A DNA stretch of 64,000 nucleotides, from contig JAVCCB010000013.1 of the NCBI GenBank assembly GCA_030765685.1, forward strand, positions 4,761-68,760, written 5' to 3'. The notes under the pieces were generated by a model, which saw nothing but the letters and a program-made list of their open reading frames with translations, was not told the DNA's origin and made no database searches. Position 1 is the first letter of the stretch. The number at the start of each line of letters is the position of its first letter. This DNA is from Candidatus Tantalella remota. GTDB lineage: Bacteria > Omnitrophota > Gorgyraeia > Tantalellales > Tantalellaceae. Both the position numbers and the translations under genes were made by a program. Positions 2,186-50,425 of the stretch are shown piece by piece.

Positions 2186-2309
2186 GATGTGACGTAACTA
2201 CTTACCGTATAACTATTTACAAATAGTTAAGAAAAAAATAGCTATCAAGCTTTTTGTTGTGTTAACTCTACCTTTTTGTTATAATAATATATTAATAAAA
2301 AGGAGCGTT

Positions 2310-5300
2310 ATGTTTGATCTGTGGGACAAACATAGGAACTTAGTGAAAGTAACGGTAACTCTTGTAGTTTGCCTGTTTCTTTTGAATACATCTGGGGTCG
2401 CTCAGGAAGAAGTCCAATATCTCATAAATTCCAAAAACTCTATAGTAGATACCGATGATCTTTCTCCAGAATTACGTCTTACACAGGACGCTTTCAGGGA
2501 AAGATATCTTGCCTCCGCGACCACACTCGCGCATAGAGCTACCAACGATTATATACACAAACAGATCCCTAAGGATGGTCTCGCCAGTCTTAAGACACGG
2601 GGCGACTTTGTCTGGGTAAATGATAAAGATAAGCAGACGATAACAATAGTTTCCATCCCAGATCTTTTACGTAACACCGGACAGTTCGCCCATGTAGGGC
2701 TTGGCAGAAAGAACGGTATGCCGGTCATCTATGTTGACGACGATTATTTTTATAACGAAGCGGTTGTCGAACATGACAAGGATGAGATCTCAAAATGGGA
2801 AACAAAACGCCGTGAGCTTGGCAAAGATTATGAGGGGATGCGCGAATGGATACGGGGAAGCGATGAAGCCAAAAAGCTTGCCGAAGAATATCACGCTTCT
2901 TCCCGGGATCTTGGCGAACTCTATGGGGACGTGAGAGAGAACTACCGGGATCTTCTCGATTGGGACAATATCTATGCCGCGTATCTCGCTTTCGGTCTCG
3001 ATGAGGACGACAAGGACGTTAATATCGCGGCAAAGAAGGGCAAGACCAAAAGGGCGAGAAGTGAGAGAAGGCAGAAAGAACGCGAGGAAAGGAAGCTGGC
3101 GGAGAAGAAAGCCCGGACAAAAGCTTCGGACCAAAAAAAGAAGATCAAAAAAAGCCCGGAGGCCAGAAAGGTATCCTTTTATCGAAAAGTGAGTGCGGTT
3201 ATCTGGTTGGGGATGGTCGTTTTTGCTGTTGTTATCGTATTTAAAATAGTTGATGTGAAGAAGAAAGAGGCCATGGTCACCCAATGGAGGGAAAACGCCA
3301 GGGTTACTCAGAGTATGGAAGCTCTACATCATCTTAATGAGGATGAGGAGGCATTTGTTCAGAAAATAGTCGAAGTTTCTAAAGATTCGGACCCCAGGGA
3401 TCTAAAGGCTTCTGCCGAGGTATTTCAAAAGCTGCTGCAGTTTGCCGTAGGAAAAAATATTCGGGATCCGGAACTTCTATACAGAAAGGCATCGGGGCGC
3501 AGGGTTTTACGGGAGATGCTGCAGGGCCCGGGACCCTTAAAGGAGGTCGGTGGACACAGGACATTTCCATACGGAGACCTTGTGTACGTCAGTATGGGTG
3601 AATGGGCAGTGACCGATCATCTCGATAAAGGGTTCAAGCTGGCCACGTCGGCACTCGCCACCTGTAAAGGTGTGGTTCTTTATGATCCTGATACAAAAAC
3701 AGGGGCGCTATGCCACAATGATCTGGACTGGATATTGTCGGATACGATTGATGCTATGTTTACAAAAATGGGAACTCCCTCTAATGTTAAAGTCTGGGTG
3801 ACCGACAATGTTACATTAGAGGACCGCAAGGCGATCGCGGCTGTGTTGGGGAGTGATTCGTATGATTTTGCTCCCCTACCTAAAGCCTTTTTATTTAATA
3901 CTCGGACTGGGAAGGTAGAGTGTTTTGAGAATAGTAAAGACATGCTAAACGGGGGACAGAGAGTATTATCGGACCTGAAAAAGAGGATAGATCTGCATAA
4001 GACCCGTACCGCTCTTATGATTGAAAAGTGTTTTATGCGATATGACAGGGGCAATCCTCAGAAACAGGTTCGGGAAGGTGTTGATGGATATGCTGATGGC
4101 AGAATAGCCGGGATCCCGGCTGAAGACTTTAAGGAGATACGGGCAGTAGGGGATAAGCGTATTCGAAGGTTTCGTAAACAATTTATGGATAATTTTATTT
4201 TTGACCCGGTAGATGACAACCAGGGAATCGTATTTTTAAGGGCTCCGGAGGGGTTTAGATACAGGTGGTCTTATCACCCCGGATATGCGCGAACTATTAT
4301 TTTACGAGATGACGCGACAGAGGGGGATATTGCGAATGCCATGCAGGGTATTTTGGCGGATTCCTTCTGGCTCATAGGTATTCCGATAGAAGAATATACA
4401 GGGTTCATTGGCCAGTCAAAAATGGACCGAGGAGAATATGCTTCAAGGGGGGGGCGTACGGCATTTGGTGACGGCGAATTTTCAGAGGAAAGAAAAGTAT
4501 TTATTCTTGGACAGGAACATCTGGATCCCTACATGGTGCATTTGTTCGGGAAGCTTATATGGGAGGACAAGGACGGTCTCGAGAGTGGGCCTGATTCTTG
4601 GAAGAACCGAGAATGGCGGGGAAGTCTTGATATGATACTTGGGCACGAGGATATTCATCCCTATCTAGAAGTATATAGAAATGATGTGAAGTCGATAGAA
4701 CGGCTGGTCAGGGACAAGGGTAACCGGGTTACGGCATTGGGGTCGGAGAACAGTGGTAAATATGTTGCATGGCTGGAAAAAAGAGCTAAAAAGGATGAAC
4801 TGAAAGAGCTTGAGGGAATACTGCGCAAGAGAGGCGTAAAGGATTTCCGAAGTAGAGCGCATGAAATAATGTTGCTAACAGAGGGTCCTGTTGCGTATAT
4901 GCAGCTTACGCGGAATCCCGCGCTTAAGGGTATAAAAATTATAGGGTTAGATGACGAGAACTTAAAAAAACAGACTATGCGTGTCGTTGGCAATATGATG
5001 CGCGCTCTGGAGTTATTAAGTACGCTAACGCGTGCGAAATCCGATTTTGCCGCTTTTCACAAAAAAATTGAAGAAGTAACGGCAGAAAAGTACGGGGTGA
5101 TTTCAAAAAAAGAAAAGATGGAACTTTTAGCCTGGTTCAAGAACCCGGCAGAGAGGAAATTGGTGCAGGAAATACTGGACTCTTTGCAGGAGATGGTTCG
5201 TCTGGGGGAGGAAAGGAGTGTTATTTTCGCGAAGAAAATAGCCGCGGAAAAAGGGGACGTGGTAACATGGATGGGAAAAGCGCATATAGGGGGCACCCGT

Positions 5301-8300
5301 AGAACGCTTACCGCGAATAAGAATCAGAAATTCAAAGTTATATCTTCTCACGGAGCGTTTATACATGCAGGCCCGCGCGGGAAAAGAAAGACTATAGAAA
5401 GGGACGGAAAGTCCCAAAAGTCCGCCCCCAAAGGTTCTCCCGCGCGTCTCTTGATGACTCTGCGTGATAACCCCGAACTTTTGGTTGTTGCATGCTCCGA
5501 CACAGGTTTTACGGCTAAAGATATAACACCTCACAGACAGAAAATAGACGGCACATCATTTTCGAAGACTACCGTAAATAAGGAAATAGAAGTCCTTAAG
5601 GCTCTCGGGATATTGGTTCCCGCGGCCGATCGGTATCATTATCGTCTGTCTAACGGGATACGCGGCCCGGACTCAGGTTTCGTTAAGCGCCTTATCAACG
5701 CCGTTATCGAGATAGAACATCAGGTAGGCGAAAAAGGCGAGAAAAGACCGCTATACCGTTACAATATCCCCAAAGAAAAACGCCCTGCCGTAAAAAAACT
5801 TGTTAATAAGATCATAGATGATGAACTTCTTTTAGAGCTTCTTATCCAAGAAGAGGGTGATCTGCCGTCATGGATCGTGAATTCACTCTCTATGGTATAT
5901 AGGAGCATTGATGACGAAAAACAGAAAGCGCAGCTTCTGAACATTATAAAGGAAGGGTTTGATTATGATCTACTGATGAGTCAGCTCGAGGACCTTCGCG
6001 CGCCTCCGGGTGATGAAAGATATACCGAAGAGTTTGCCAGGGCTTATCGCGCCAGAGAACTCTTTAGCATGGCCTATGATTACAGCCATGGACCCGCGAT
6101 CTTCACCAAACAGGTTTTTCTTGACGCGATAGTAAAATTATTGAACAAACGGCCTTCCGCGATAAGGCTCTCAGACCTCAGCTATGACGACCTTTTGGCG
6201 CTTGCTCCGGACAGGGAAGATAATTATGAAAAGCTGCATATTACCAGAACTCATAAATATGCGCTTCTCATTGCGAAGGAACTGGGGCTGAGAAAAGAGC
6301 TTGTAGAGATGATCGGCCGGACAGCGGCTGTTCATGATATAGGAGGATTGGTAGGACCAATACAGGTAGGTGATATTGAAGCTACCATACGCCGTAGCAC
6401 CGAGGTAATTAAAGAATACGGCCTTCCGACTAAAAGTTCCCCGGAGAAGTCCCTTGCGGCGCTTGACGCTCTTATTAAGGAAAGACCGGAGTTGGCAAAA
6501 TACCGGCTTGGAGACGATAAAAAATTCTATTTGAGTATGGCGTACATGATCGCAGGGGCTTATGCCGCGGACGGCGCGCCAATAACCTGGGACGATCTTG
6601 AGAAGATCGCCATAGAGTTCAGTCATGAACGATTGGGCACGGACAGGCTACGACAAAACGGTATTATCCTGACACCTGCCGAAGAGTTTATTATAAACAA
6701 TCATTTCTTTTACCCGTCGGATATGATGGGTATCGAAGAGAAAGCAGTTGCCGAAGGCATGACAGCCGAAGAGCTTAAACTTTTACTGGATATTCTTATA
6801 TTTTGCGATATCTGGGAGAACGGCAACCACGCTACCCGGCTTAAATTACGGCGCAATATTGCATATCAGCCGTTCGTAAGGACATTCGAACTTTTTGGAC
6901 AGTTTTATGGAAACACCTCTGAGATTGGCCCGGAACCGGAACAGGCTATGATGCGTCTGGTCGCGAAAAAAGATCCCGCTGTGGTCGCTCTTCTAAAAGA
7001 GCAGCGGCCCGACGATTCGACAGACGCGATCAAGGCCGGAGAATACGATGAGGTAGCTGAGCTTTTGCGAGTTTCTGAAAGAAGGAACATACTGAATGTG
7101 CCTTCCGAAGAAATACTGGATATAAGTGACGGCTATGTCAGGGACCATATAGAGAGGGTCTCCAAGATCGCGCTCAGAATGGGGAGGGAAGTCGGAATTT
7201 CAGACCAGGAGATGAACATCCTGAGAGCGGCCGTGTACGGACATGACGCAGGTCCAAGGCATACACCGGAGGATTATGCTATTCTTGAAGGCTATGGGGT
7301 AGATTTTAAAAAGTCTAAGATCATGAAGCGCGAAGAGTTTATAAAATACGCGGAAGCTAAAAAAGGCTCCGCTCTTACCGAAGCACAGTTTTTTGTGCTT
7401 GATGATATATACAGGCACGGCGAGAATTTTGTGGAATATTTAAGCAGAAGGTACGTTGTCCCGCAGGAAGTAGACCTCCTAATACGGCACCATAAGGATT
7501 CTGTGGAATATGTTGAAAAGTTTGGCAGTATGAAAAATGAAATATCCGTTCCGGCGGAGCGGCTTCGCCTTCTTCTCGAGATACTGATAACGGCAGATAT
7601 GTTTGAAAACGCGAATAGCAAGCTTAAGATGCAGATGTCAGGGCAGGGGGATGTTAACTCCTTTATGCAGAGTTTTGAGGATCCGGATGTTTTCAGCATG
7701 TTATATCAAGGCAAGGGTATAACGGATATGACAGCAAGGGATATTCTTATTTCGCTTATAGTGGCAGAAGATGAAGAACTGTTAAAGGTGGTGTTTGAGG
7801 GCAGGGGCAAGAAAGGCCTTATGCCGGATGACCGCGTCTTCATAGAAGGGCAAAGAAGGCGAAAATCCGGGAGAGGCAAAGGCTCTCCCGCGGACCTTCT
7901 TGAGACAATAATGGATGATCCGCGGCTTTTTGACAAGGTGATAGGAGAAACGGGTATAACAGTTGACGGGATGACAGGGGTAAGAGGGTTTTCGCGAGGG
8001 GTTGTTCAGGAAGAGTTCAGGATACTTAAAAAATTAGGAGTTTTAGTTACTGGGCATAAGAGTCCTTTTATGCGATTTAATCATACGCTTAGAGCTATGC
8101 CTCTCGCAGACCTGAAATATACTATTAATGCCATAAAAGAGATCGAATATCAGGTGGGAAGGACTGGTGATAAGAGACCTTTGTACAGGGCGACAATTCC
8201 CAAAAGGGATATGGTGGCGGTACTGGAAATTGTAACGCGTGAGATGGGGTTTCGCCCCGAAAGAGCCGAGAGAGAGGGGGATAAAGACACTCTAGAACGA

Positions 8301-10142
8301 TTAAGGAAAGTTGTGAGGGTGCGCGAACCTTCGGTGCGAGATACAATAACCAGCGAGGAACAGATTATAGAGATCATAAATGAGGCTGTTGTTGCGCACG
8401 GGTCAGAAATTGTGCGGGCAGGAAGCATTGAGTCAATAGTTTCTTATCGGGTGCATGATCACAAGTATATGGAGAATCCTCTGACAATAAAGATGCTCAG
8501 GAGAGCGTTTTTGGCGGTGTCGACGCTTAAGGATGACGACGGGAACCATAAGTTTTTTGGTGGCAGTTGGGTGGAGGCAAGAAAGCGAGCCGGGGTAACA
8601 GACTTGATCTCAATGCCCCCCGGATATAGGGGAGTATGGGGCTGGTCTGAAGAGAGAGTGCTTGATGCTATCAAGGCGGCGTGTACAAAACATGGAGAGA
8701 AAGCAGCCGCGGGGGGCAATGTTCAGAAAATTAAAATAGGATGGAAAAGGCGGGCGACCGGGGTGGATCCGCTATTGAAGGAGCTGAAACAGGCGTACCA
8801 GGCGGTTTTTAATTCACGTACCAAGGAGCCTGGATACAGACTGTTTGATGGTGAATGGTCGATAGCAGTACGGGCAGCTGGTTTTTCGTATACGACTAAG
8901 AAAGATCTTGAGGTTTGGTCGGAGGCCAGTATCATTGAAGTTATTAAAAAAGCTGTAGATATGCACGGGGAGTCGATTTTGTTGGGGGTTCAGGGGATTC
9001 ATAAAAAATATAGTAAGGATTCAATTCCCGCTGAGCTTTCTCTTTTATATCGGGCCTGGGGGGCAAGTACGTATAAGAATTTGGGTGGCAGAGGAACACC
9101 GTCTTATTTTGATGGTACCTGGGCGGGTGCGGTCACCGCTGCGGGATATGACTATTATCGCATTAATTGTCCGAAAGGAAGTGGGGAATATATTTTGAGG
9201 AACATCAGAGATAACGAAGAGCTTTTACAAAAAGCATTGATGCCAAAGGGTATAAGAGTTTCTGCGGCCCCATCTTTTGAGAGGGGAATAAGAATGCTGG
9301 TCTCTGCCGGGATTTTTATCCCGGCCTCGGTACGTGGTAATTACAGGTTGTCCCCGATGATGCGAGGGGAGGATATAAATTATACAAAGACTATGATAAA
9401 TGCCCTGATAGATATGGGGTATAATATCAAGCTCGAGTACGAGGCTCCATATGTAGATTCCAGGTTGCAATGGCGACGGGCATTGAGACAAAAGACTCTT
9501 AACAAAGCACAGCTTAAAACTATAAAACAGCTTGCTAAGACCGTAGTGCTCGAACAAATAGGATATATGCAAAAAGCTGCTATACCGGAGGGTAAGGTGT
9601 TGTGGCATCTGATAGACAAAAGTATATTGTCGGAAGGGCAGGATTATTCTTTTGCCCAAAAAATAAACAATGCTTCCAGGAGTTCCGGTTCTCCGGAACG
9701 GATCTTTATAGTCGATGGGCGTTGGCCGATCAATGAGGTTATAGCGTCCATAAAAGAAGACTGCCCCAACGCGGTTTTTGACATAGCGCTTGGCGATCGG
9801 GAGAAAATATCTGAAGTGCCCGAATTGCAAGGAGTAGAGCAGATCAGGATGCTTGTCTTTGAGACTTCCGACGGTTCCGACTATACCCATTTGGAAGCTG
9901 TTGTGCAGGCCCTTAGAGCTCTTCACCTTTCAAAGAACAGGGTAATACCTCATCTTCTCGAGATATTGTCTGTCTTGAAGGGGAGCGCGTACAAGGGGGA
10001 AGTGCCGGATATGTCGGTTCTTGATGATCCCCGTGAATTTGCGAGACAGTTCATATTTATTTTGCCGCCGGTCAAGGGCTTGCCGATCGATGATATTCCG
10101 AAACTCAACGACCATCTTCTCAAAGTGCTCATAGCCGCGTAA
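2310..10142 (+). CDS. Giant membrane-anchored multidomain protein (~2610 aa). It has an N-terminal signal-like segment, a Lys-rich stretch followed by a TM helix, two HD-type phosphohydrolase domains, duplicated winged-helix-like modules and triplicated GxW..AAG modules.
   Basis: The ORF is continuous from 2259 to 10142. AAGGAG lies 5 nt before the ATG at 2310 (MFDLWDK...).
- Anchor: hydrophobic TVTLVVCLFLLNTSGVAQ; lysine-rich run then VSAVIWLGMVVFAVVIVFKIV.
- HD signatures: ...HKYALLIAKELGL..AAVHDIGG...LDILIFCDIWEN and ...HIERVSKIALRMG..AVYGHDAGP..HHKD..LEILITADMFEN.
- Possible metalloprotease motif: HExxH (ILGHEDIHPY).
- Duplicated ~130-aa winged-helix-like modules: ...SFSKTTVNKEIEVLKALGILV...EIEHQVGEKGEKRPLYRYNIPK and ...GFSRGVVQEEFRILKKLGVLV...EIEYQVGRTGDKRPLYRATIPK. 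Confidence 0.85.
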   Translation: MFDLWDKHRNLVKVTVTLVVCLFLLNTSGVAQEEVQYLINSKNSIVDTDDLSPELRLTQDAFRERYLASATTLAHRATNDYIHKQIPKDGLASLKTRGDFVWVNDKDKQTITIVSIPDLLRNTGQFAHVGLGRKNGMPVIYVDDDYFYNEAVVEHDKDEISKWETKRRELGKDYEGMREWIRGSDEAKKLAEEYHASSRDLGELYGDVRENYRDLLDWDNIYAAYLAFGLDEDDKDVNIAAKKGKTKRARSERRQKEREERKLAEKKARTKASDQKKKIKKSPEARKVSFYRKVSAVIWLGMVVFAVVIVFKIVDVKKKEAMVTQWRENARVTQSMEALHHLNEDEEAFVQKIVEVSKDSDPRDLKASAEVFQKLLQFAVGKNIRDPELLYRKASGRRVLREMLQGPGPLKEVGGHRTFPYGDLVYVSMGEWAVTDHLDKGFKLATSALATCKGVVLYDPDTKTGALCHNDLDWILSDTIDAMFTKMGTPSNVKVWVTDNVTLEDRKAIAAVLGSDSYDFAPLPKAFLFNTRTGKVECFENSKDMLNGGQRVLSDLKKRIDLHKTRTALMIEKCFMRYDRGNPQKQVREGVDGYADGRIAGIPAEDFKEIRAVGDKRIRRFRKQFMDNFIFDPVDDNQGIVFLRAPEGFRYRWSYHPGYARTIILRDDATEGDIANAMQGILADSFWLIGIPIEEYTGFIGQSKMDRGEYASRGGRTAFGDGEFSEERKVFILGQEHLDPYMVHLFGKLIWEDKDGLESGPDSWKNREWRGSLDMILGHEDIHPYLEVYRNDVKSIERLVRDKGNRVTALGSENSGKYVAWLEKRAKKDELKELEGILRKRGVKDFRSRAHEIMLLTEGPVAYMQLTRNPALKGIKIIGLDDENLKKQTMRVVGNMMRALELLSTLTRAKSDFAAFHKKIEEVTAEKYGVISKKEKMELLAWFKNPAERKLVQEILDSLQEMVRLGEERSVIFAKKIAAEKGDVVTWMGKAHIGGTRRTLTANKNQKFKVISSHGAFIHAGPRGKRKTIERDGKSQKSAPKGSPARLLMTLRDNPELLVVACSDTGFTAKDITPHRQKIDGTSFSKTTVNKEIEVLKALGILVPAADRYHYRLSNGIRGPDSGFVKRLINAVIEIEHQVGEKGEKRPLYRYNIPKEKRPAVKKLVNKIIDDELLLELLIQEEGDLPSWIVNSLSMVYRSIDDEKQKAQLLNIIKEGFDYDLLMSQLEDLRAPPGDERYTEEFARAYRARELFSMAYDYSHGPAIFTKQVFLDAIVKLLNKRPSAIRLSDLSYDDLLALAPDREDNYEKLHITRTHKYALLIAKELGLRKELVEMIGRTAAVHDIGGLVGPIQVGDIEATIRRSTEVIKEYGLPTKSSPEKSLAALDALIKERPELAKYRLGDDKKFYLSMAYMIAGAYAADGAPITWDDLEKIAIEFSHERLGTDRLRQNGIILTPAEEFIINNHFFYPSDMMGIEEKAVAEGMTAEELKLLLDILIFCDIWENGNHATRLKLRRNIAYQPFVRTFELFGQFYGNTSEIGPEPEQAMMRLVAKKDPAVVALLKEQRPDDSTDAIKAGEYDEVAELLRVSERRNILNVPSEEILDISDGYVRDHIERVSKIALRMGREVGISDQEMNILRAAVYGHDAGPRHTPEDYAILEGYGVDFKKSKIMKREEFIKYAEAKKGSALTEAQFFVLDDIYRHGENFVEYLSRRYVVPQEVDLLIRHHKDSVEYVEKFGSMKNEISVPAERLRLLLEILITADMFENANSKLKMQMSGQGDVNSFMQSFEDPDVFSMLYQGKGITDMTARDILISLIVAEDEELLKVVFEGRGKKGLMPDDRVFIEGQRRRKSGRGKGSPADLLETIMDDPRLFDKVIGETGITVDGMTGVRGFSRGVVQEEFRILKKLGVLVTGHKSPFMRFNHTLRAMPLADLKYTINAIKEIEYQVGRTGDKRPLYRATIPKRDMVAVLEIVTREMGFRPERAEREGDKDTLERLRKVVRVREPSVRDTITSEEQIIEIINEAVVAHGSEIVRAGSIESIVSYRVHDHKYMENPLTIKMLRRAFLAVSTLKDDDGNHKFFGGSWVEARKRAGVTDLISMPPGYRGVWGWSEERVLDAIKAACTKHGEKAAAGGNVQKIKIGWKRRATGVDPLLKELKQAYQAVFNSRTKEPGYRLFDGEWSIAVRAAGFSYTTKKDLEVWSEASIIEVIKKAVDMHGESILLGVQGIHKKYSKDSIPAELSLLYRAWGASTYKNLGGRGTPSYFDGTWAGAVTAAGYDYYRINCPKGSGEYILRNIRDNEELLQKALMPKGIRVSAAPSFERGIRMLVSAGIFIPASVRGNYRLSPMMRGEDINYTKTMINALIDMGYNIKLEYEAPYVDSRLQWRRALRQKTLNKAQLKTIKQLAKTVVLEQIGYMQKAAIPEGKVLWHLIDKSILSEGQDYSFAQKINNASRSSGSPERIFIVDGRWPINEVIASIKEDCPNAVFDIALGDREKISEVPELQGVEQIRMLVFETSDGSDYTHLEAVVQALRALHLSKNRVIPHLLEILSVLKGSAYKGEVPDMSVLDDPREFARQFIFILPPVKGLPIDDIPKLNDHLLKVLIAA

Positions 10143-10152
10143 AGGATAGCCT

Positions 10153-10243
10153 ATGTAGGACGCGAATTTTGAGAATTGTGAAGAGAGAATAGGAATTGCT
10201 ACACCATTCTCAATTCTCCATTCCCGGACACTCTGTTTTACGC
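10153..10243. repeat. Conserved ~95 bp downstream element 'R', copy 1, immediately 3' of giant ORF 1. It is an imperfect hairpin.
   Basis: tgtaggacgcgaattttgagaattgtgaagagagaataggaattgctacaccattctcaattctccattcccggacactctgtttta matches 15212..15307 over nearly its full length. Inverted arms are GAGAATTG/CAATTCTC. Confidence 0.6.
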
Positions 10244-10247
10244 CAAC

Positions 10248-10445
10248 TACCCCCTCATGTATAACCTAAATTGTAAACTGTAAACTGTGAACGGTGCGAG
10301 ATCTAGTAGCTTTTGGAGCTGTGTTCAACATATGAGTGTTCTGTTTACTGTTTACGGTTCACTGCTCCATTTTTTCACTTTTTTACATAAAAATAGGGGG
10401 TACCCCCGTAAATATAACCAGGTTAGTTTCGACCAGGTTAAAAGC
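10248..10445. repeat. Upstream element 'L', copy 2, directly 5' of giant ORF 2
   Basis: Roughly 90% identical by eye to 2008..2185, over ~180 bp. It includes the GGGGGTACCCCC palindrome and two TAACCAGGTTA-type motifs (ataaccaggttag, gaccaggttaaaag). Confidence 0.6.
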
Positions 10446-10567
10446 TATTCTAAGTCATTATTACAGAAAGACTTATATGAGGTTAAAAATGCAATAGTTA
10501 TAACTATTTATTGACCTAACTACCTTTTTGATGGTATAATGGCGCCATATTAATTTTATTAACGCAC

Positions 10568-13500
10568 ATGTATATAAGTAGCGTATATGGAGGTACGTCG
10601 GGAAAGATGGCATCAAACAAGGTATCACAGCACATTATTACAAATGTAATAACAAATATTATTATTATTACCTTCACCCTTACAAGCATTCCTTGTCTTG
10701 AAGAGGCACACGCTCTTTCGCCGTGGGCCGGTTCACAAAGAGTGGCTGTACGCCGTGCCATGCTCGATCGCGCCATAGATAATGCCAAGGTAAGCTATGC
10801 TGAAGAAGGCGATCCTCTATTGAAGGATACGAACGGTCTTCTTCTTTCGCATGGCAAAATACTTCTTTCACCTGAACTCAAAAACGACTCCCTAAAAAAA
10901 CTTAGAGTTATTTTTCATGAAGAGATCGAAGCAGTGATGCAGATCCTTGCCAGGCAGGATCGCGCCAGATACAGTCATCTTATAAATATGATCCTTTCGG
11001 ACAACGCTATAGTGACTGCCTACAGGAATGCTTTTCCTTCAAAAAACACAGATATTGTTTCCGATGAAATGCTTTGCAACGATATCATCGCCAGCGCTTT
11101 CGAGCTTCTGCTTCTTTTTGAGGAGAGCGCTGTTTCATCCAAAGAAATAACAAAAGAGGAAAGAGCGTTTATCGAAATTATTCGTCCGGCGATCGACGCC
11201 AACAAGCACAGTTACTTTACCGGGATGTTCTGGGACCAGTACGCTCGCGAGCTCCACATACGTGCGGCCATAGCTAATGGCCAGAAGTTCACCCAGGCCC
11301 GGCAGGGCACTGGTGAAGTGGGTCTGGTTGTCGGCCAGGACGATGAGAGCGTGGTGCAGGCCGATGTCGCCGCCTCTTTGGCCGAGGAGGAAGCTTTAAT
11401 TGAAAAGCTGAGGGAGGATCCACTGAGCTCTATCTTCGGACGTGATGCATATTTAGAGAACATGCTATTGGAGTTCCTGAGCCAAAATGGCGGAAGAGCC
11501 GCTTTTGATGAAGTAAGGGCGGCAATGGTAGAGTATCCGGAGAGGATAGTAAGGGTTGTTTTGCACGACCTTGTTAAAAACGGTCGTGTAGAGATAGAGG
11601 CGCGTCCTGGCAGGCCGGGGATATTAAATCTTCTTGCGGGAGGGGGAGGGGGAGATGTAAAAGTATCGCAGGAAAGGGAAAACAAACATCGTGATGAGAT
11701 CAAGAAGAGGTTCGAGGATTATGAAGGAGAAATATACTATCCCACGCCATGCGCTGATTTTGGGTCTTTTGTGATACTCGTCGCTATGTTTCCGAAAGTC
11801 AGCAGATTCGTTTACAGGGACGGATTCTATATGGATGAAGTGTCTTACGATATACCCTCCCCGAAGGACATAAACCAGGTCTCTGCGTTTCTCGGAGAGA
11901 AGCTGGCCAGGCTTGAAAAGGGTCAGGTAGCCACGCACGAGATACTGGTGGTAGACGACAGAACACTTGATATCAAAGTGTCATTTAAAAAAGCTTTGCC
12001 TTACGCGGGTAGAACTGTCCACATCAGGTATGAAGTCGGAGATATTTTTGAGAATGACAACACGTACGGCATGGTATATGTTCGGCAGCCGGGACTTGCC
12101 GGTCAAATAAGCGCGAAACCGGCTTTCTGGGAAAAGATGAAAGCTAACACTTCTAAAAATGGTCTGATCCTTGTCAGCAGTGAGTTGACTCATTTTCCAT
12201 GGTCAAGAGGCCTGGAAAGTCTCCTTGATATAAAATACGCTCCAGGAGACTGGATCACCGTTTACCGGGATCCGGCGGAGCCTTCCACGGACGAACGGGA
12301 CTCCAGGGAAGGCACCTCTTCCCGTCAAGGGGCGGGAGAAGAAGATCCGGGAATTGCGCCACAAAAGGATATGCCGTACAAAAAATGGTATGTTACCGCC
12401 CGGCATCTCTATGATGAGACAGGCAAAAAGGTGGCTGTTGAACTTGCACGACGGTCTCTCGCTGATGTGTTTGCCGTGTATTTCTACATGGAATTGGATT
12501 ATTACGAGGGAACCGGACGGCGTATAGTTGCTCATATTCCCGCGGCACCTTTTTATTTTTTCAGTATAGCATCGAAGAGCAAGTTCAAGCACGTCAATGT
12601 GGTCATAGGTAATGTTTTGTCGAACGCCCTTAAGTATGGAGGAACCGAAGATGTTACAGTCAGGCTCCAGCCGCGAGGAGCGGATCTTCATATAGAGATC
12701 GAAGACCACGGCAGGGGGATACCAGCAGAAGAGATAGGGCATCTGACAGAGCTGGAATATAGAGGGAGCAATGTCGGGGATAAATATGGATGTGGCGACG
12801 GGCTCGCGCTCACAAAAGAGTACTTAGAAAAGTTAAATGCCACAATGGATATCAGGTCTGAAGTCGGGAAAGGGACCATTGTATCCATAGATATTCCGGA
12901 TGCGTTGGAGCGCAGCCTATTGCCGGATGCGGAGACTGTACAGCATCTTATCGCAAGGCAGGCCTCCGCCGCCGGCACTAAAGCTCGACAGGGAAATGGC
13001 GAGAACGATATTTCTTCTGAGGATAAAGGGGCAACGACCGACGGTGTTTCAAATATGGAATTATATTTGTCCGAGGTGCTTTCGGTGCAGAATGGAACGT
13101 TTATGCTGCTTGTGGAACGTTTTTCGAGAGGCGCCAAAATATCGATGAAAGAAGCGAGCTGGTTAGCCGCGTTGCTTGTATGTGATGTGGAAAAACTCAC
13201 ACCGCTAGATCAAATGAAGGTTGGCGAAAGGCTGGAATATCTTGAGTTCACCATTAAAATATTAGAGGATCACTTAAAAGGTAAGCCTACTTCACGAAAC
13301 ATCAGCCTTCAGATGATCAAACGCGCGAAACTCGCGTTTGAAAACAAAGGTGCCTTCGCGCGCCAGGGAGAAGGAGAGGAAGATCCGTCGTTTGCCGCTG
13401 ATCTTTACGAGAGAACCGATGCCCAGCTCGTTTTCCCGGCCGGGTTCCGGGCCGACGATGCCAGGAGAAAAGAGCAGCTCCATGCGACTATCACAGAGCT

Positions 13501-15202
13501 TTATGAACTGCTGAAATATGAAAAAGAAACCGTATCTTTTCCGGGAGAACCTCTCATGCGGATAGATCTGGGATCGGATAGCGTAACTCTTTCGGATGGC
13601 GTAGTGTTGAGGGACATAGATATTTACGACAATCGCTTTTGTCCCGTATTTTTAGTGCCGGGCGAAGGACGGTATGTAAAAGTGGACTTCAATCAGAATC
13701 CGCGTTTTTACGGATTGTACAAGACTCTATTTTATCTTCTGAAGGGGAATGAGCTGGATCTTATTTTTCCTTTTGATTCTGATCCATCTCCAAAGGGCGA
13801 CGGGGCGTGGGATTCGTGGCATACTGATATGGATTGGCAATTTGTTGGCCGGACAAATCCCTATCCAAATGAGATAGACCCGCTTGTGGTCGAAGCGGTA
13901 ACCAAGGCCATTTTCGCCCTCGGCCTGGACGGAGATCCGGAGGGGATAACAGTGCTGGATATATTCGGTGGTTCCGGACGAATGATAGAAAAGTTGGATG
14001 GGAATATTTCAAAGAGGTTTGATGGTCTGGGGGCAGAAAAACCGGATATGAAATATTTCGTAATAGATCGTAATAAAAGCAACATTGATCACGCCCATGC
14101 GCGTTTAAGTGGACTTGATGTAACTATACTTAAGCGTGACATGACAGTTGTTGATAATATAGCCGAGGAGATAGGAAACGTGGCCCATATCGTGGTATGT
14201 GAGGGCGGCCTGACGTATCAGGTTGTAAACCGGGACGAGGCCGAACAGATCGCCGGGAGGGTCTACGACGTTCTTGTTCCCGGTGGAGTTTTTGTGGTAA
14301 CCGGATATAACCCAAGTCTTTTATCCGCCCCTGATTTTGAAAAAATAGGATTCCGTGTTTTGAATAAAAGTATTCCCAAAAATACTTTGAATTATGACAA
14401 AACTGCCCAATTCTATGTTTTGATGAAGCCTTTATCTCAGGTGACGGACAAGAAAAATGCGGATGATGTTGATGAAATAAGAAGTGAGCCTATGCGGATA
14501 AACTCCGTAGAAGATATTCCGTTCGAGGACGCTGTCCAGGCGCTTGCCGCCACTGTGGAAGACGAATGCGCGGGGTATTCCGCTCATTTAAGAGGTAAGT
14601 TGACAAATGATGAGCGGTCAGGACAGAGTCTCATACTTTATGCCGATGATATGCTCGAAGGCGCGGCCATACTTGACTTGAACAGGACTTTAAAAAATAC
14701 CCTCGGGAGCGGCAACATCTTCGCAGGAGGTAAGATAATCATTTTCGCGAGAGAGAAATCTAACGGTATTATACTGGAGAAGATGATCAACGACGCAGCT
14801 CCATCTGTGGAAACTCTGATGATCAGCACGGAAGAGCTTGCCCGTCGTAAGAATATTTGTGAAGGGGAAGAGGATGAGATAAAGGCGCTTGTCCAGTTCG
14901 CTAAAACAAAAGGGGCGAATGATATACTCGCCCTTATAAAGGGTCCGGTAAAAGACCTTGATACTGTTGAAAAACTTGCTCCGCTTGCGAAAAAACTGAA
15001 CGTGCCTGTAGTCATCATGGAGGGAGGAGAACGGGTGGTTTACTCTTTTGCCCAGGCCATAGCGTTGGCGATCACCATGAAGCAGGACGAAGGCGCGAAA
15101 GGGTGGCTTATAGTACTCCCGCCGGTCCGCCGTATTACCGACGACATGGAATTGCAGTACCAGCAGTATCACGCGTCACGCATGGCTCGCGTGGCAGTAT
15201 AA
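10568..15202 (+). CDS. Giant multidomain protein (~1530-1544 aa): N-terminal hydrophobic anchor, four RQGxGE(E/N)D motifs, a GHKL/HATPase_c-type ATPase domain, and a C-terminal Rossmann-fold SAM-dependent methyltransferase-like domain.
   Basis: The ORF is continuous. An alternative start at 10607 gives MASNKVSQHIITNVITNIIIITFTLTSIP.
- HATPase_c boxes: N box VIGNVLSNALKYGG; G1 IEDHGRGIP; G2 GCGDGLALTKEYLEKLNA ... GKGTIVSIDIP.
- MTase motif I: VLDIFGGSGRMIEKL (a DxFxGSG, RsmD-like Rossmann signature), followed by acidic D/E at the end of beta-2 (FVIDRN).
- Repeats: ARQGTGEVG, SRQGAGEEDPG, ARQGNGENDISSED, ARQGEGEEDPSFAAD. Confidence 0.85.
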   Translation: MYISSVYGGTSGKMASNKVSQHIITNVITNIIIITFTLTSIPCLEEAHALSPWAGSQRVAVRRAMLDRAIDNAKVSYAEEGDPLLKDTNGLLLSHGKILLSPELKNDSLKKLRVIFHEEIEAVMQILARQDRARYSHLINMILSDNAIVTAYRNAFPSKNTDIVSDEMLCNDIIASAFELLLLFEESAVSSKEITKEERAFIEIIRPAIDANKHSYFTGMFWDQYARELHIRAAIANGQKFTQARQGTGEVGLVVGQDDESVVQADVAASLAEEEALIEKLREDPLSSIFGRDAYLENMLLEFLSQNGGRAAFDEVRAAMVEYPERIVRVVLHDLVKNGRVEIEARPGRPGILNLLAGGGGGDVKVSQERENKHRDEIKKRFEDYEGEIYYPTPCADFGSFVILVAMFPKVSRFVYRDGFYMDEVSYDIPSPKDINQVSAFLGEKLARLEKGQVATHEILVVDDRTLDIKVSFKKALPYAGRTVHIRYEVGDIFENDNTYGMVYVRQPGLAGQISAKPAFWEKMKANTSKNGLILVSSELTHFPWSRGLESLLDIKYAPGDWITVYRDPAEPSTDERDSREGTSSRQGAGEEDPGIAPQKDMPYKKWYVTARHLYDETGKKVAVELARRSLADVFAVYFYMELDYYEGTGRRIVAHIPAAPFYFFSIASKSKFKHVNVVIGNVLSNALKYGGTEDVTVRLQPRGADLHIEIEDHGRGIPAEEIGHLTELEYRGSNVGDKYGCGDGLALTKEYLEKLNATMDIRSEVGKGTIVSIDIPDALERSLLPDAETVQHLIARQASAAGTKARQGNGENDISSEDKGATTDGVSNMELYLSEVLSVQNGTFMLLVERFSRGAKISMKEASWLAALLVCDVEKLTPLDQMKVGERLEYLEFTIKILEDHLKGKPTSRNISLQMIKRAKLAFENKGAFARQGEGEEDPSFAADLYERTDAQLVFPAGFRADDARRKEQLHATITELYELLKYEKETVSFPGEPLMRIDLGSDSVTLSDGVVLRDIDIYDNRFCPVFLVPGEGRYVKVDFNQNPRFYGLYKTLFYLLKGNELDLIFPFDSDPSPKGDGAWDSWHTDMDWQFVGRTNPYPNEIDPLVVEAVTKAIFALGLDGDPEGITVLDIFGGSGRMIEKLDGNISKRFDGLGAEKPDMKYFVIDRNKSNIDHAHARLSGLDVTILKRDMTVVDNIAEEIGNVAHIVVCEGGLTYQVVNRDEAEQIAGRVYDVLVPGGVFVVTGYNPSLLSAPDFEKIGFRVLNKSIPKNTLNYDKTAQFYVLMKPLSQVTDKKNADDVDEIRSEPMRINSVEDIPFEDAVQALAATVEDECAGYSAHLRGKLTNDERSGQSLILYADDMLEGAAILDLNRTLKNTLGSGNIFAGGKIIIFAREKSNGIILEKMINDAAPSVETLMISTEELARRKNICEGEEDEIKALVQFAKTKGANDILALIKGPVKDLDTVEKLAPLAKKLNVPVVIMEGGERVVYSFAQAIALAITMKQDEGAKGWLIVLPPVRRITDDMELQYQQYHASRMARVAV

Positions 15203-15211
15203 TAGCAGCTA

Positions 15212-15307
15212 ATGTAGGGCGCGAATTTTGGGAATTGTGAACTGGGAATAGGGAATTGCTTACTATTCTCAATTCTCTATTCCCAATTCCCGGACACTCT
15301 GTTTTAC
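15212..15307. repeat. Downstream element 'R', copy 2, immediately 3' of giant ORF 2
   Basis: tgtagggcgcgaattttgggaattgtgaactgggaatagggaattgcttactattctcaattctctattcccaattcccggacactctgtttta, the same element as 10153..10243. Confidence 0.6.
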
Positions 15308-15419
15308 CAGCAGCTAAAGCTTTGTCCATGATCGCCGCTCAAATTCCTTCACAAAACCGTTAATACGGTGTAAAATACGCTACAAACCTGGTAAACATTT
15401 AATTAACAAGGAAATCATA

Positions 15420-15575
15420 GTGATTATTATACAAATAGGTGCTGTCGCGTTGCTTGGTGTCCTGATAGGGCTGTGCTATTATTTTGACAGGCAGGCGATG
15501 ATCCTTCCGGCGAGCCTGACATTTATTGCCATCGTTGCCTATACTTTCGCGCTTACAGTGTTCCTGCAGCCGTAA
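15420..15575 (+). CDS. Small hydrophobic membrane protein (51 aa, GTG start). It is absent from the ORF track because it is short.
   Basis: Hand translation gives VIIIQIGAVALLGVLIGLCYYFDRQAMILPASLTFIAIVAYTFALTVFLQP* with two predicted TM segments. aaGGAaatcatag precedes the GTG. It lies between the R element and the HD-GYP gene. Confidence 0.3.
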   Translation: MIIIQIGAVALLGVLIGLCYYFDRQAMILPASLTFIAIVAYTFALTVFLQP

Positions 15576-15642
15576 ATAAGCCGCATGAAAAAGTGATTTC
15601 GACAGTTTTTTCTGATAACATTTTAACGGGAAGCGAGAAGAT

Positions 15643-17091
15643 TTGGATAACAAAAAACGCTATTTCGTGAGTCTGAAGACAAAAGCGGCGCTCATGGCGC
15701 TTATCGCGGGACTCGTTATTATTTACCTTAGCAACTTTTACTTTTCCGCAAAAGCGGAAAAGATCCTTTACCGATATAGCCTCCAGAGGATGAACGCTTT
15801 AGCGCAGCTCTTTGCCCTTAATGCCAGCCAGGGGAAACTTTTGCAGAACAGGGGAATAGCGGAACGTTTGTGTTACAGCGTCAACGAAGACCCTGATGTG
15901 TTATTCGCGCTTGTTATAGATGAGGACAAAAAAATATTTGCGGGCAATTACGCGGGGATCCCGGGAAGTTATTTTAAGCGCATAACGGAAGTCCTGAGTT
16001 CCAGCGAAAAAGATTTTTCGAAGAAGACGGCTATCCTTGAAGAGGAGACGGGCAACGGCGGAGGACTTATGATCCAGCCGATATATTCCGCGAGTATGAA
16101 AGCCACGGTAGGAAGCGGTTTTATTGAAGACCAGGGGTCTGTGAGGAAGATACTTGGATACAGCGTTATCGCGTTCAGCCTGGAAAATATCAAGACCGAG
16201 ATAAGGGCTATGCGGACCAAAATAGTGGCTCTTTTATCCGTAGCCCTTGTCCTGATAATAATAGTCTTTTACGCCTTGGTAACGCTCCTTACCCGCAACC
16301 TGAGACGTCTCTTGGAAGCTGCCTCCCGCCTTGAGAAGGGCGATCTCACAGCGCGTGTTAATATCCAGTCACATGATGAGATCGAAGAACTCGCTGACGG
16401 GTTTAACAAAATGGCGGGTCAGATGGAGGACTCGAACACCGAACTTAAAGACGCGCTTGTGAAGATACAACAGTCTTCACTTGAAACCATTTACAGGCTT
16501 TCGCTTGCGGCGGAATACCGTGATTGGGATACCGGTCATCATCTTTTGCGGATGAGCCATTATGCGAAAGCTATTGCCAAAGAGATGGACCTTGAGCCAA
16601 AGTATACTGAAGCTATCCTTTATGCGTCACTCATGCACGATGTCGGGAAGATAGGCATTCCTGATAACATCCTGCGAAAACCGGGAAAACTTACGCCTCA
16701 GGAATGGGATGTGATGAAGCAGCACACGGTCATTGGGGCGCAAATATTGGAGAGGTCTGAAGCTGAATTCATAAAGATGGCAGAAGGCATAGCTTTATCA
16801 CATCATGAGCGTTGGGACGGGAGCGGTTATCCGCGGGGGCTTAAAGGGGATGAGATCTCTCTCGCGGCGAGGATAGTAGCTGTTGCCGATGTTTTTGAAG
16901 CAATAACTTCCAAGAGGCCTTACAAAGAGGCTTTTTCTGTAGAGACCGCGTTCAACATAATAAAAGAAGGACGAGGGACGCATTTTGATCCAACGGTCGT
17001 CGATGCTTTCTTCGAGATCAAAGATGAGATCCTTAATATAAAGAATCGGGATTACCATCCGGAAGACCCCCGGATACACGACGAAAAATAA
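15643..17091 (+). CDS. HD-GYP domain c-di-GMP phosphodiesterase with an N-terminal periplasmic sensor and a HAMP linker
   Basis: Two TM helices bracket a ~170 aa extracytoplasmic region. HAMP-like segment: LLEAASRLEKGDLTARVNIQSHDEIEELADGFNKMAGQM. HD-GYP signatures: LMHDVGKIGIPDNILRKPGKLT...HHERWDGSGYPRGL. TTG start at 15643. Confidence 0.8.
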   Translation: MDNKKRYFVSLKTKAALMALIAGLVIIYLSNFYFSAKAEKILYRYSLQRMNALAQLFALNASQGKLLQNRGIAERLCYSVNEDPDVLFALVIDEDKKIFAGNYAGIPGSYFKRITEVLSSSEKDFSKKTAILEEETGNGGGLMIQPIYSASMKATVGSGFIEDQGSVRKILGYSVIAFSLENIKTEIRAMRTKIVALLSVALVLIIIVFYALVTLLTRNLRRLLEAASRLEKGDLTARVNIQSHDEIEELADGFNKMAGQMEDSNTELKDALVKIQQSSLETIYRLSLAAEYRDWDTGHHLLRMSHYAKAIAKEMDLEPKYTEAILYASLMHDVGKIGIPDNILRKPGKLTPQEWDVMKQHTVIGAQILERSEAEFIKMAEGIALSHHERWDGSGYPRGLKGDEISLAARIVAVADVFEAITSKRPYKEAFSVETAFNIIKEGRGTHFDPTVVDAFFEIKDEILNIKNRDYHPEDPRIHDEK

Positions 17092-17684: not shown

Positions 17685-18503
17685 ATGAAGATCCTTCTGG
17701 TAATTATACTGGTTTTTTCGTTCTCAATAGCCTGTTCCGCTCAGCAGGATGATGTGCAAATGCGTATTTTTAACGTTAAACACGGGGATACGGATTCAGT
17801 ATATCAGGTGCTCGACCATATGAAGAGTCCCGATGGAAAAGTCACGGCGCATACTGCTACGGGAAATATAATCGTTATTGATCATCCCGCGAATCTTCAG
17901 CAGATGACCGTTGTGATGGCGAAGGTCGATGTTCGTAAAGAACAGGTGATGATAACCGTAGTCATCGCCGATGTGGGGCGGATCTTTATCGAAAAGGGCG
18001 GCCTCACTTTAGGTCAGTCCGTTCTGACTCCGGAAAATTTTGGAAAAATCCAATATCTTCTTGAGCAAGGGGAAGATTCCCTCGTTAAGACGGAGATGTC
18101 AGTAAGGACATTGAGCGGAAAACCCGCTAGAATACAGACGGGAACCAACAAAGAGTTCGTTAATACATGGTCAGTCAAGGGCGGAGTGCTTGTGATCGTT
18201 GCCGCCGCTGAAAGATTTGCCGGAGACATGCTTGAGGTCATTCCCCGAGTCAATAGCGATGGGACAATAGAAGTAGCGATGCGGCCTGAGGTGAGCGAAT
18301 TCCGAACAGACAGCGTAAAACATGAGCGATCCGCTTTTACGCGGGTTAGCGTCAAAAATGGAGAAACGATAGTCGTCGGAAGCATAGACAGTTCCGGGGA
18401 ATATCGCCGCCAGTCAAAGCTTCTGCACGCGGAACCCACGATCGCGGAGAGAACGACGGTGGACAATATTGTTATGATGTTTCTTACAGTGGATATATTA
18501 TAG
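17685..18503 (+). CDS. Short secretin-like outer-membrane protein (GspD/PilQ secretin C-terminal-domain-like) with a signal peptide
   Basis: Signal peptide MKILLVIILVFSFSIACSAQ. The N-terminal segment (VQMRIFNVKHGDTDSVYQVL) resembles secretin N domains. The central segment (LVKTEMSVRTLSGKPARIQTGTNKEFV) and C-terminal pattern (RVSVKNGETIVVGS...TVDNIVMMFLTVDIL) resemble the secretin domain (RxxDGETxVIGG...ELLIFITP). At 272 aa it is much shorter than canonical secretins. Confidence 0.5.
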   Translation: MKILLVIILVFSFSIACSAQQDDVQMRIFNVKHGDTDSVYQVLDHMKSPDGKVTAHTATGNIIVIDHPANLQQMTVVMAKVDVRKEQVMITVVIADVGRIFIEKGGLTLGQSVLTPENFGKIQYLLEQGEDSLVKTEMSVRTLSGKPARIQTGTNKEFVNTWSVKGGVLVIVAAAERFAGDMLEVIPRVNSDGTIEVAMRPEVSEFRTDSVKHERSAFTRVSVKNGETIVVGSIDSSGEYRRQSKLLHAEPTIAERTTVDNIVMMFLTVDIL

Positions 18504-23220: not shown

Positions 23221-23310
23221 AAATCGTCATCCCCGAATGCGACCGAGGGGCATAGGTCCCCGAGGAAGTGCCGAATGCCACAGGGCTTCGGCCTCTGAGC
23301 GGGGATCCAA
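23221..23310. repeat. ~90 bp intergenic repeat, copy A (aatcgtcatccccg...cggggatccaa), with 8-bp terminal inverted ends
   Basis: aaatcgtcatccccgaatgcgaccgaggggcataggtccccgaggaagtgccgaatgccacagggcttcggcctctgagcggggatccaa matches 30950..31039 by eye, in the same orientation. Inverted ends are ATCCCCG/CGGGGAT. Confidence 0.6.
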
Positions 23311-23427
23311 CAAAAACATTATTTATATTTCATTCCCGCTTCCGCGGGAATGACGTCTTTCCATCATCCATTCCCAATTCGCTATTCCCACCTTTACCTT
23401 AACCTGTATTACATGTAAAATGCATGT

Positions 23428-24321: not shown

Positions 24322-24623
24322 CGCGACACGATGTTGTCGCTTGTTTATGATAAGATGGAAAATAGAAGTGTGTTGATAGTTCGTAGTTTATAGTTTGTTG
24401 ATCCAGACAATGAACTATAAACAAAAAATAATGAACACGTTATTCAGATCCAACCTGGCAGAAACTAACCTGGTTAAGGCTTTATGAAAGAGTTAGGGTT
24501 AGTTCCTGGTATGCGCCCGGTAACCGTGTAGAAACTAACCAGGTTATAAATGCGGGGGTAGTGAATTTCACAATAGCCTGAATTCTTGCGCTATTGACCA
24601 GCAAAGGGTTATAATACCTATCA

Positions 24624-50306: not shown

Positions 50307-50425
50307 ACTTTAAATCCAGAATTCAAAGTCCAAAATCCAAAATATCTATTTTGGATTTTTTTGTTTGGATTTCATTTGTCCTTTGGATTTTGTCATTTGT
50401 GTTTCCCCGCGCGAGATACGAGATA

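Follow-up and report, generated by a model that had tools for sequence, protein, structure and literature searches.

The analysed window, 64,000 nucleotides (nt) of contig JAVCCB010000013.1 (assembly GCA_030765685.1) from Candidatus Tantalella remota, contains a long open reading frame (ORF2) that was confirmed in the sequence at 10568..15202 on the + strand. The genus belongs to the phylum Candidatus Omnitrophota of the PVC (Planctomycetes-Verrucomicrobia-Chlamydiae) group. The source contig is 94.7 kb long, and the ORF2 product is 100% identical to NCBI protein MDP8298495.1, annotated as 'ATP-binding protein' of Candidatus Tantalella remota. Amino acid (aa) numbers used here run from the mechanical start of the reading frame at 10568, and the NCBI model begins at Met14, which corresponds to position 10607. 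The latter appears to be the likelier start because three indications agree on it: the NCBI model itself, a GGAGG sequence at 10589 that lies 13 nt upstream of the ATG, and the N termini of homologs, which align to this position. A predicted sigma-70-like promoter of near-consensus sequence (11 of 12 matches, with an extended -10 element) resides about 66 nt upstream of this ATG, and thus ORF2 can be transcribed independently of ORF1, the very large gene that precedes it.

The key feature of the ORF2 protein is an architecture in which two conserved end domains, or caps, enclose a string of cargo modules, some of which recur in other members of the same family, with a short motif under protein-level selection at the module boundaries. 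Each of the first four boundaries carries the sequence (A/S)RQGxGE. The original prediction for this gene, made from its letters, had emphasised a fusion of a GHKL ATPase to a methyltransferase; of greater interest is the architecture of the family together with its boundary motif. The features of the gene and its surroundings are collected in Table 1.

Table 1. Features of ORF2 and flanking sequences, in window positions (aa numbers count from the mechanical ORF start at 10568)
Feature	Position	Strand	Description
ORF1	2259-10142	+	2627 aa; signal-like N terminus, second transmembrane helix at about aa 313, no N- or C-cap
5′ intergenic element	10248..10437	.	Shared with the region upstream of ORF1 (2007-2181); 119 nt at 92% plus 48 nt at 79% identity
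Predicted sigma-70-like ORF2 promoter	10511..10540	+	TTGACC, 18 nt, TG-TATAAT
ORF2, probable true coding region	10607..15202	+	1531 aa plus stop; NCBI model, GGAGG, homolog N termini
Predicted Sec-type signal peptide	10607..10714	+	Short basic n-region, hydrophobic h-region, c-region IPCLEEAHA-LSPWAG (predicted cleavage at the hyphen)
Conserved N-module	10715..11299	+	aa 50-244, about 195 aa; alpha+beta
Boundary motif 1	11297..11317	+	ARQGTGE, aa 244-250, directly after the end of the N-module
Cargo module 2	11321..12319	+	aa 252-584; winged-helix-like stretch at about aa 292-356 plus an uncharacterised region
Boundary motif 2	12320..12340	+	SRQGAGE, aa 585-591; flanks acidic, rich in Pro, Ser and Gly
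Cargo module 3	12341..12982	+	aa 592-805, about 215 aa; stand-alone histidine-kinase-type ATPase
Pfam HATPase_c (PF02518) span	12593-12901	+	aa 676-778
Boundary motif 3	12983..13003	+	ARQGNGE, aa 806-812
Cargo module 4	13004..13357	+	aa 813-930; small uncharacterised domain
Boundary motif 4	13358..13378	+	ARQGEGE, aa 931-937
Cargo module 5	13379..14467	+	aa 938-1300; uncharacterised region of about 170 aa, then a class I methyltransferase-like domain at about aa 1113-1300
Pfam methyltransferase match	13955-14287	+	aa 1130-1240
Conserved C-module	14522..15199	+	aa 1319-1544, about 210 aa; Rossmann-like alpha/beta/alpha
3′ element	15207..15284	.	Directly after the stop; the region after ORF1 has a copy (10148-10225) with 79% identity over 78 nt

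The division into caps and cargo is evident from the six closest homologs, P0002-P0007 (1514-2526 aa; family proteins carry P labels and genome loci L labels). These proteins match ORF2 at the ends only, over aa 14-245 at 41-60% identity and over aa 1299-1544 at 37-43%, and their unrelated middles contain pentapeptide repeats, sigma-70 regions, kinases, methyltransferases and HATPase domains. Profile hidden Markov models (HMMs) of the two caps score ORF2 at E=1.4e-119 for the N-module and E=3e-103 for the C-module, and no other ORF in the window matches either one.

The N-module, which is 41-60% identical in P0002-P0007, is found by its HMM in 48 of 150 proteins carrying the C-module, nearly always at the N terminus behind a signal-like sequence; many of the C-module proteins that do not have it are probably truncated fragments. 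Its AlphaFold2 model is confident (pLDDT 89.8, pTM 0.86), and it has no significant fold match in the PDB (best E=0.4) and no match in Pfam, NCBIfam or PHROG. Preceding it is the single hydrophobic segment that hydropathy detects in ORF2 (aa 23-41), whereas about half of the family members have internal pairs of transmembrane helices. This segment had been described as a hydrophobic anchor. The hydrophobic character holds, but the segment reads better as a Sec-type signal peptide, predicted from hydropathy and inspection and with a putative cleavage site, since the signal layout and the junction xEEAxA-L(S/A)PWAG are conserved across family members.

The C-module is likewise modelled with confidence (pLDDT 90.4, pTM 0.89) and has no match in Pfam, NCBIfam or PHROG; its best PDB match (E=4e-4, TM-score 0.35) is to generic Rossmann and dehydrogenase folds only. 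An exhaustive search of 1.84 billion representative proteins with the C-module profile returned 223 clusters at 50% identity with E<=1e-3, 195 of them at E<=1e-10, with proteins up to 5903 aa in length. The module ends no more than 12 residues from the C terminus in 144 of 150 proteins. Of the 121 proteins in which it is complete, 113 have Ala as their final residue and 71 finish with Ala-Ala; ORF2 itself ends in Ala-Val. Tail-specific (Prc/Ctp) proteases and ClpX read determinants that such an apolar ...AA terminus resembles, and it is a possible lead to a processing enzyme.

A scan of genomes located the family at 13 loci, all in metagenome-assembled genomes that are assigned to Omnitrophota or labelled 'uncultured Planctomycetia', and large ORFs are often adjacent or in tandem at these loci. 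Cap-family genes often lie head-to-tail with other very large ORFs, as at L013 (3-4073 / 4057-10341), L009 (3310-9868 / 10027-16494) and L003 (3-5318 / 5098-9651). At L013, a gene with a C-module is followed directly by a new gene that begins with an N-module, and L009 may contain a frameshifted family gene. Overall, the family to which ORF2 belongs appears not to have been described before, and it comprises proteins, predicted to be exported, in which interchangeable enzyme modules are enclosed by two conserved caps.

The second defining feature is the boundary motif. RQGxGE occurs in ORF2 at aa 245, 586, 807 and 932, that is, in 4 copies against a mean of 0.0012 and a maximum of 1 in 20,000 composition-matched shuffles, and the six-frame translation of the window contains no further copy of it or of the looser QGxGE. 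The four RQGxGE motifs of the original prediction are thus no artefact of composition, and they lie in acidic, Gly/Ser/Pro-rich sequence of linker-like character. The four copies use four different Arg codons, which places the constraint at the level of the protein rather than the DNA.

The motif is shared with at least one other protein of the family. P0021 (MDP8298731.1; 2849 aa), whose cargo includes GNAT and methyltransferase domains, contains eight copies of A-x-Q-G-T/D-G-E; it is annotated as Candidatus Tantalella remota and its accession is in the same series as that of ORF2. Since the two proteins come from the same species and carry different cargo, they represent two paralogs with a common motif. 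Other members display other repeated sequences: P0077 has two copies of KQGTGE plus a third, degenerate copy (LKTGENDPT), P0141 has six copies of R.SASGA, and in P0004-6 the sequence SLGAAARGFT[KD]E is repeated. Four or more spaced copies of a motif are found in 6 of the 88 members of at least 1000 aa, compared with none in shuffled sequences. Where they could be mapped, the motifs fall between Pfam domains, and in P0141 one of them precedes by 13 aa the first position matched to the profile of a 5-formyltetrahydrofolate (5-FTHF) cyclo-ligase domain.

In P0021, several of the linkers (aa 513-545, 1402-1430, 1566-1600 and 2558-2600) continue after AxQGTGE with near-identical stretches, SLEHPPSPSAFAKA(S/L)ADKRLRRTGGAG and VSLELGASAFAKATADK. 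We take these stretches to resemble in-frame translations of GC-rich palindromic repeat DNA, and they could point to repeat-mediated insertion at module boundaries. A scan of metagenomes with back-translated ARQGxGE[ED]D yielded at least 120 single matches, mostly in unrelated ORFs and some of them probably spurious, none of which is accompanied by an N- or C-module. A literature search on QGTGE and RQGxGE found nothing relevant. Among established cleavage rules, neither the C39 double-glycine, the LapG di-alanine, the dibasic nor the 3C-like Q|G pattern fits all copies of the motif.

Of the cargo, module 3 is the most readily classified. It contains an HATPase_c domain (E=1.8e-18, 67 bits against a Pfam cut-off of 26.4) in which the N box (NALKYG, aa 686), the G1 box (DHGRGI, 713), the G2 box (GCGDGL, 741) and GKGT (767) can be located, so the GHKL ATPase with clear N, G1 and G2 boxes was correctly recognised from the start. 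Every one of its top NCBIfam matches is a sensor histidine kinase aligned over the catalytic domain only, and the closest solved structures in the PDB are the catalytic and ATP-binding (CA) domains of WalK-, PhoR- and BceS-type kinases (E of about 1e-8). An assignment to the MORC or anti-sigma type, which had been suggested, is not borne out: there is no Pfam match in ORF2 to the MORC-type HATPase_c_3 or to an S5-fold transducer, HATPase_c_2 (PF13581) gives a weak secondary match far below PF02518 (23.8 bits against a cut-off of 27.4), and no STAS partner was found among the annotated neighbouring genes. Because the best matches are all histidine-kinase CA domains, the ATPase is of the histidine-kinase type rather than the MORC type.

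The resemblance to two-component histidine kinases is confined to this domain. ORF2 shares with their CA domain (PF02518) the N, G1, F-like and G2 boxes, but it does not have the dimerization and histidine phosphotransfer (DHp/HisKA) domain, a conserved phospho-acceptor His, a sensor domain or a cognate response regulator. The reported absence of a HisKA H-box therefore stands: no HisKA-type domain is matched in Pfam at E<=0.1, alignments to NCBIfam and PDB entries start only with the CA domain, and the His within ARHLYDE of ORF2 is not kept in the homologous module of P0140.

Module 5 ends in a domain that probably corresponds to a class I S-adenosylmethionine (SAM) methyltransferase. The sequence VLDIFGGSG at aa 1129 represents motif I and lies 351 aa past the end of the HATPase domain, in agreement with the Rossmann motif initially placed about 350 aa downstream, and four libraries converge on this segment. 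The isolated segment matches the full profile of Methyltransf_25 at E=7.6e-5 (23.8 bits, below the Pfam cut-off of 27), with further Pfam matches to Methyltransf_12 (3e-3) and Ubie (0.02), an NCBIfam match to UbiG (E=0.039), and a match to PHROG 4752, 'tRNA methyltransferase' (E=1.3e-6). The best match in the four libraries is to the PADLOC model mad2 (E=7e-9), which covers the methyltransferase domain only. A single-sequence search of the PDB with this region gave no match.

Comparison with class I enzymes (Methyltransf_25/11/12, UbiE/UbiG-like) by inspection of the sequence reveals the canonical elements in order, namely motif I, the acidic post-I residue (YFVIDRN), motif II (IVVCEGGLTY) and VLVPGG. 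ORF2 differs from them in its score, which is below the Pfam gathering threshold, in an insertion between strand 1 and strand 2, and in having no DPPY/NPPY sequence. The domain had been read as a methyltransferase of the DxFxGSG type, which suggested an amino-methyltransferase. A pattern search found no (D/N/S)PP(Y/F/W) in the whole ORF2 protein, so an amino-methyltransferase of the N6-adenine, N4-cytosine or HemK type is improbable, and the profile matches point instead to the Methyltransf_25/12, UbiE/UbiG and tRNA methyltransferase families.

The remaining cargo is less familiar. Module 2 has only weak matches (GMT-wHTH, E=0.15; ADAR Z-alpha domain, E=0.15) and no relative among the 150 family proteins, and module 4 has no match in Pfam, NCBIfam or PHROG. 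However unfamiliar, module 4 recurs in the family: its aa 824-930 are found in P0044 at aa 1743-1852 (E=1e-26). The ATPase module behaves in the same way, with aa 594-786 recurring whole in P0140 at aa 954-1148 (E=1e-26), and in both cases the recurring spans fit the module limits set by the motifs.

A Pfam census of the cargo of 30 members with both caps places HATPase_c first (6 members), followed by PPDK_N (4), methyltransferase families (3-4) and pentapeptide repeats (3), with PGK, radical SAM, GH77, DHQ synthase and PAS occurring once each. P0002 also combines HATPase and methyltransferase domains. Among Omnitrophota proteins of at least 10 thousand amino acids (kaa), PF08241 and PF02518 are the top members of one co-occurrence module, according to a 2026 preprint by Nielsen and Lui (bioRxiv 10.64898/2026.06.07.730766). 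A GHKL ATPase together with a methyltransferase in one polypeptide, which had been considered unusual, is thus no special pairing here. The two domains are probably independent cargo modules rather than a dedicated fusion, and this corrects the 'ATPase plus methyltransferase' reading from a new bifunctional enzyme to two separate passengers.

Two further sequence patterns were seen in the cargo of relatives. Directly after the N-module, P0002 and P0003 contain a GxC...HxW...D pattern with a weak match to Transglut_core3 (E=0.035), and P0002, P0003, P0007 and P0022 contain an HxHP...SxxD pattern, which in P0002 falls in a region matching DUF4329 (E=1e-3); the P0002 regions are aa 270-330 and 1335-1352. 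These Transglut_core3-like and DUF4329-like patterns may represent protease-like cargo modules.

The balance of these observations leans toward placing ORF2 in a family of modular carrier proteins of Omnitrophota, rather than reading it as a dedicated ATPase-methyltransferase, with the motifs acting as processing or docking sites. Judging from its sequence, such a protein would be exported through Sec, and its caps would perform a job common to all members, for example export, anchoring or assembly. The boundary motifs would be recognised by a lineage-specific factor. Most likely this would be a protease that cuts the chain into modules in the manner of a polyprotein, the main alternative being a partner that docks there or modifies the site. 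ATP and SAM are required by the cargo, so its place of action would be a cytoplasm, conceivably that of a host or prey cell, which fits the lifestyle proposed for the phylum.

Cleavage is favoured over docking because the motif is 7-12 residues long, rich in small residues, embedded in disordered acidic linkers, and variable between lineages in the way of sites that coevolve with their protease, and because cleavage has already been proposed for the giant proteins of Omnitrophota, at sites that are not known. The full version of this scheme is a tentative and rather doubtful proposal: AxQGxGE would mark proteolytic sites, and ORF2 and its paralog would be secreted polyproteins cut by a dedicated protease into free modules that might serve as effectors in a host or prey cell. 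The pieces released from ORF2 would be the N-cap, the winged-helix module, the kinase-type ATPase, the small domain, and the methyltransferase together with the C-cap.

Several points weigh against this interpretation. No protease is evident in ORF2, and no protease, binding partner or modifying enzyme was identified for the motifs. To export domains that depend on ATP and SAM makes little sense if they do not arrive in another cell, and the signal peptide on which export depends is read from hydropathy and the layout of the sequence. ORF2 carries no copy of the motif where its methyltransferase domain adjoins the C-module. Although QGTGE of motif 1 has a pLDDT below 50 in the N-module model, these residues terminate the construct that was modelled, a place at which low confidence would be expected in any case. 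Most family members have no clear repeated linker motif, and while three or more copies of some sequence are found in 29 of the 88 large members compared with 5.8 for shuffled sequences, several members of this group owe them to folded repeats. A reading of the N-module itself as a zincin protease provides a lead only: the His of HExxE on its long helix is present in just 22 of 34 members, about two thirds, and its top matches (anthrax lethal factor, ZMPSTE24, an M1 peptidase) are not significant (E of at least 0.4, TM-score below 0.3).

Comparisons can be drawn with the long and giant ('Archaeovorin'-type) proteins of Omnitrophota, as described in two preprints (West-Roberts et al. 2023, bioRxiv 10.1101/2023.11.21.568195; Nielsen and Lui 2026, 10.64898/2026.06.07.730766). 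The cap family shares with them the phylum, the presence of a signal peptide and/or transmembrane helices, the clustering of large genes, and a mosaic of cytoplasmic-type enzymes that often includes HATPase_c, methyltransferases, PPDK_N and radical SAM. In the published surveys, 94% of the proteins catalogued (at least 10 kaa in length) have transmembrane helices or signal peptides, and the long proteins are portrayed as exported and multi-enzyme, with post-translational cleavage suspected at points that are stated as not known. ORF2 differs in size, having 1531 aa in a family that reaches 5.9 kaa, whereas the surveys cover proteins of at least 10 kaa (the 2026 catalogue) or more than 30 kaa. 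It also has, by Pfam, no C39 or S8 peptidase (located near the N terminus in the giants), no SecA-like domain (near the C terminus in the giants), and no HEAT or dockerin domains. A search by terms found no passage describing the caps or the boundary motifs in either preprint.

Outside the phylum, a close parallel in overall logic is to the MARTX (multifunctional autoprocessing repeats-in-toxin) toxins. In these proteins, conserved N- and C-terminal regions flank variable effector modules, and cutting of the linkers between these modules sets them free. The arrangement of caps around variable modules is common to both, but in ORF2 cleavage is only hypothesised. In addition, ORF2 has no RTX or GD-rich repeats and no C80 cysteine protease domain (no Pfam match at E<=0.1), its predicted export signal is N-terminal and Sec-type rather than the C-terminal signal of type I secretion, and its cargo resembles housekeeping enzymes.

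A second parallel is found in polymorphic toxins, where short motifs, such as VENN in CdiA and PxxxxDPxGL in Rhs, mark the junction between conserved and variable parts, and where modules are exchanged between paralogs. Short motifs at module junctions and the exchange of modules likewise occur in the ORF2 family. Here, however, the variable part is central rather than C-terminal, there is no immunity gene, and the motif is present several times per protein. A role for the motif as a DNA recombination site was considered and rejected as unlikely, since its codons differ between copies.

The alternative that survives best, possible but unlikely, is that ORF2 remains an intact, surface-exposed or envelope-anchored multi-enzyme scaffold, and that its motifs are sites of docking or modification (for example, by a kinase or by a transglutaminase-type enzyme acting on Gln) rather than cleavage. 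The placement of the motifs in acidic, Gly/Ser/Pro-rich linkers and their divergence between lineages, which is frequent among short docking motifs, would suit this arrangement. RRSASGA of P0141 also resembles, in our own reading, the consensus of basophilic kinases. Published accounts treat the long Omnitrophota proteins as membrane-associated multi-domain assemblies. Sequence alone cannot separate such a scaffold from a cleaved chain; no partner was identified, however, and the scaffold leaves unexplained why unrelated cytoplasmic-type enzymes would be tethered outside the cell.

An improbable alternative concerns the caps, which could be head-to-tail docking domains like those of polyketide synthase and nonribosomal peptide synthetase (PKS/NRPS) subunits, joining paralogs into a non-covalent super-assembly analogous to the covalent giants of the phylum. 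That conservation is far higher in both caps than it is in the cargo, that genomes contain several paralogs with large ORFs in tandem, and that the extreme C terminus is conserved and ends in Ala-Ala are all compatible with docking of this kind, but it does not account for the internal motifs, and in P0004-P0006 and P0027 the N-module lies about 200 aa in from the N terminus. That ORF2 is a bifunctional enzyme dedicated to signalling or defence, an anti-sigma or MORC-like GHKL ATPase acting with the methyltransferase, for example in methylation-based defence, is very improbable despite the intact nucleotide- and SAM-binding motifs of the two domains and the mad2 match, since the domains are 350 aa apart with two boundary motifs and an unrelated, independently recurring module between them, relatives keep the caps and swap the cargo, the ATPase is of the histidine-kinase CA type, mad2 extends over one domain while ORF1 has no PADLOC match and the annotated neighbours are housekeeping or signalling genes, and a defence enzyme directed at DNA would not be expected to carry a signal peptide.

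For the carrier-protein family, the consequences reach beyond this gene. The very long exported proteins of Omnitrophota may act as single chains or as cut pieces, and the ORF2 family offers a tractable, small version of this problem, ORF2 itself being small enough to express. The boundary motif of the two paralogs gives exact peptide ends to seek in metaproteomes, and the two structurally confident caps, which have no known relatives, are usable as family markers. If AxQGxGE were indeed cut, the long proteins of this phylum would have their first cleavage code.

The flanks of ORF2 are in part duplicated around ORF1. The 5′ element, which is upstream of the ORF2 promoter, contains inverted heptamer arrays in which three TGTAAAC-like sequences face three GTTTACA-like sequences; these heptamers could be transcription-factor sites. 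The hairpin of the element is not thermodynamically exceptional (z = -1.08), and a partial copy of the element resides at 24452-24560. The 3′ element is hairpin-like and was not called by a simple terminator scan. It is probably a dispersed intergenic repeat or a terminator-like element, the former being suggested by a third copy in the window at about 60611-60686 on the - strand. Rfam gave no match in the whole window.

ORF1 has weak HD-domain matches, and a winged-helix-like unit with KGSPA/KGSGE at its start is repeated three times in it. Comparison with the ORF2 caps by BLAST, hhalign and HMM detected no shared module, and a proposed common '...ILPPV...' tail of the two proteins was rejected after these negative results. 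Aa 30-235 of ORF1 do resemble the start of the giant ORF that adjoins an ORF2-family gene in L009 (E=1.7e-10), and thus the two gene types may recur together. The original prediction had taken the shared flanks to mark both genes as one unit. The flanks themselves are real, with the identities listed in Table 1, and the adjacency in L009 speaks in favour of a unit; the absence of a shared module, the separate promoter of ORF2 and the presence of parts of the flanks elsewhere in the window argue against it.

Just downstream of ORF2 is a very hydrophobic ORF of about 51 codons (15420-15575, +), and beyond it a gene with HAMP and HD-GYP domains of the cyclic di-GMP phosphodiesterase type (15643-17091, +), followed by a short secretin-like ORF (17685-18503). 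Genes for cyclic di-GMP-binding PilZ proteins and for type II-like secretion occur near giant Omnitrophota genes, according to West-Roberts et al. (bioRxiv 10.1101/2023.11.21.568195). The neighbours annotated by Pfam (TtcA, HD-GYP, secretin-like, PGM, AddAB) have housekeeping or signalling functions. PADLOC returned no match for ORF1 and only the domain-level mad2 match for ORF2, with no co-located defence-system genes among the annotated neighbours.

Three further families of intergenic direct repeats are present in the window. One of them (D1) is rich in TTTGGATTT and another (D3) in CCCGATA/CCTGAT. The positions of these further repeats are 44360-44441, 45049-45130 and 50323-50404; 31184-31241, 31481-31538 and 41988-42045; and 23221-23336, which pairs with 30950-31064. 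The D4/D7 repeats form copies, 82-93% identical, that flank the AddAB-like gene pair.

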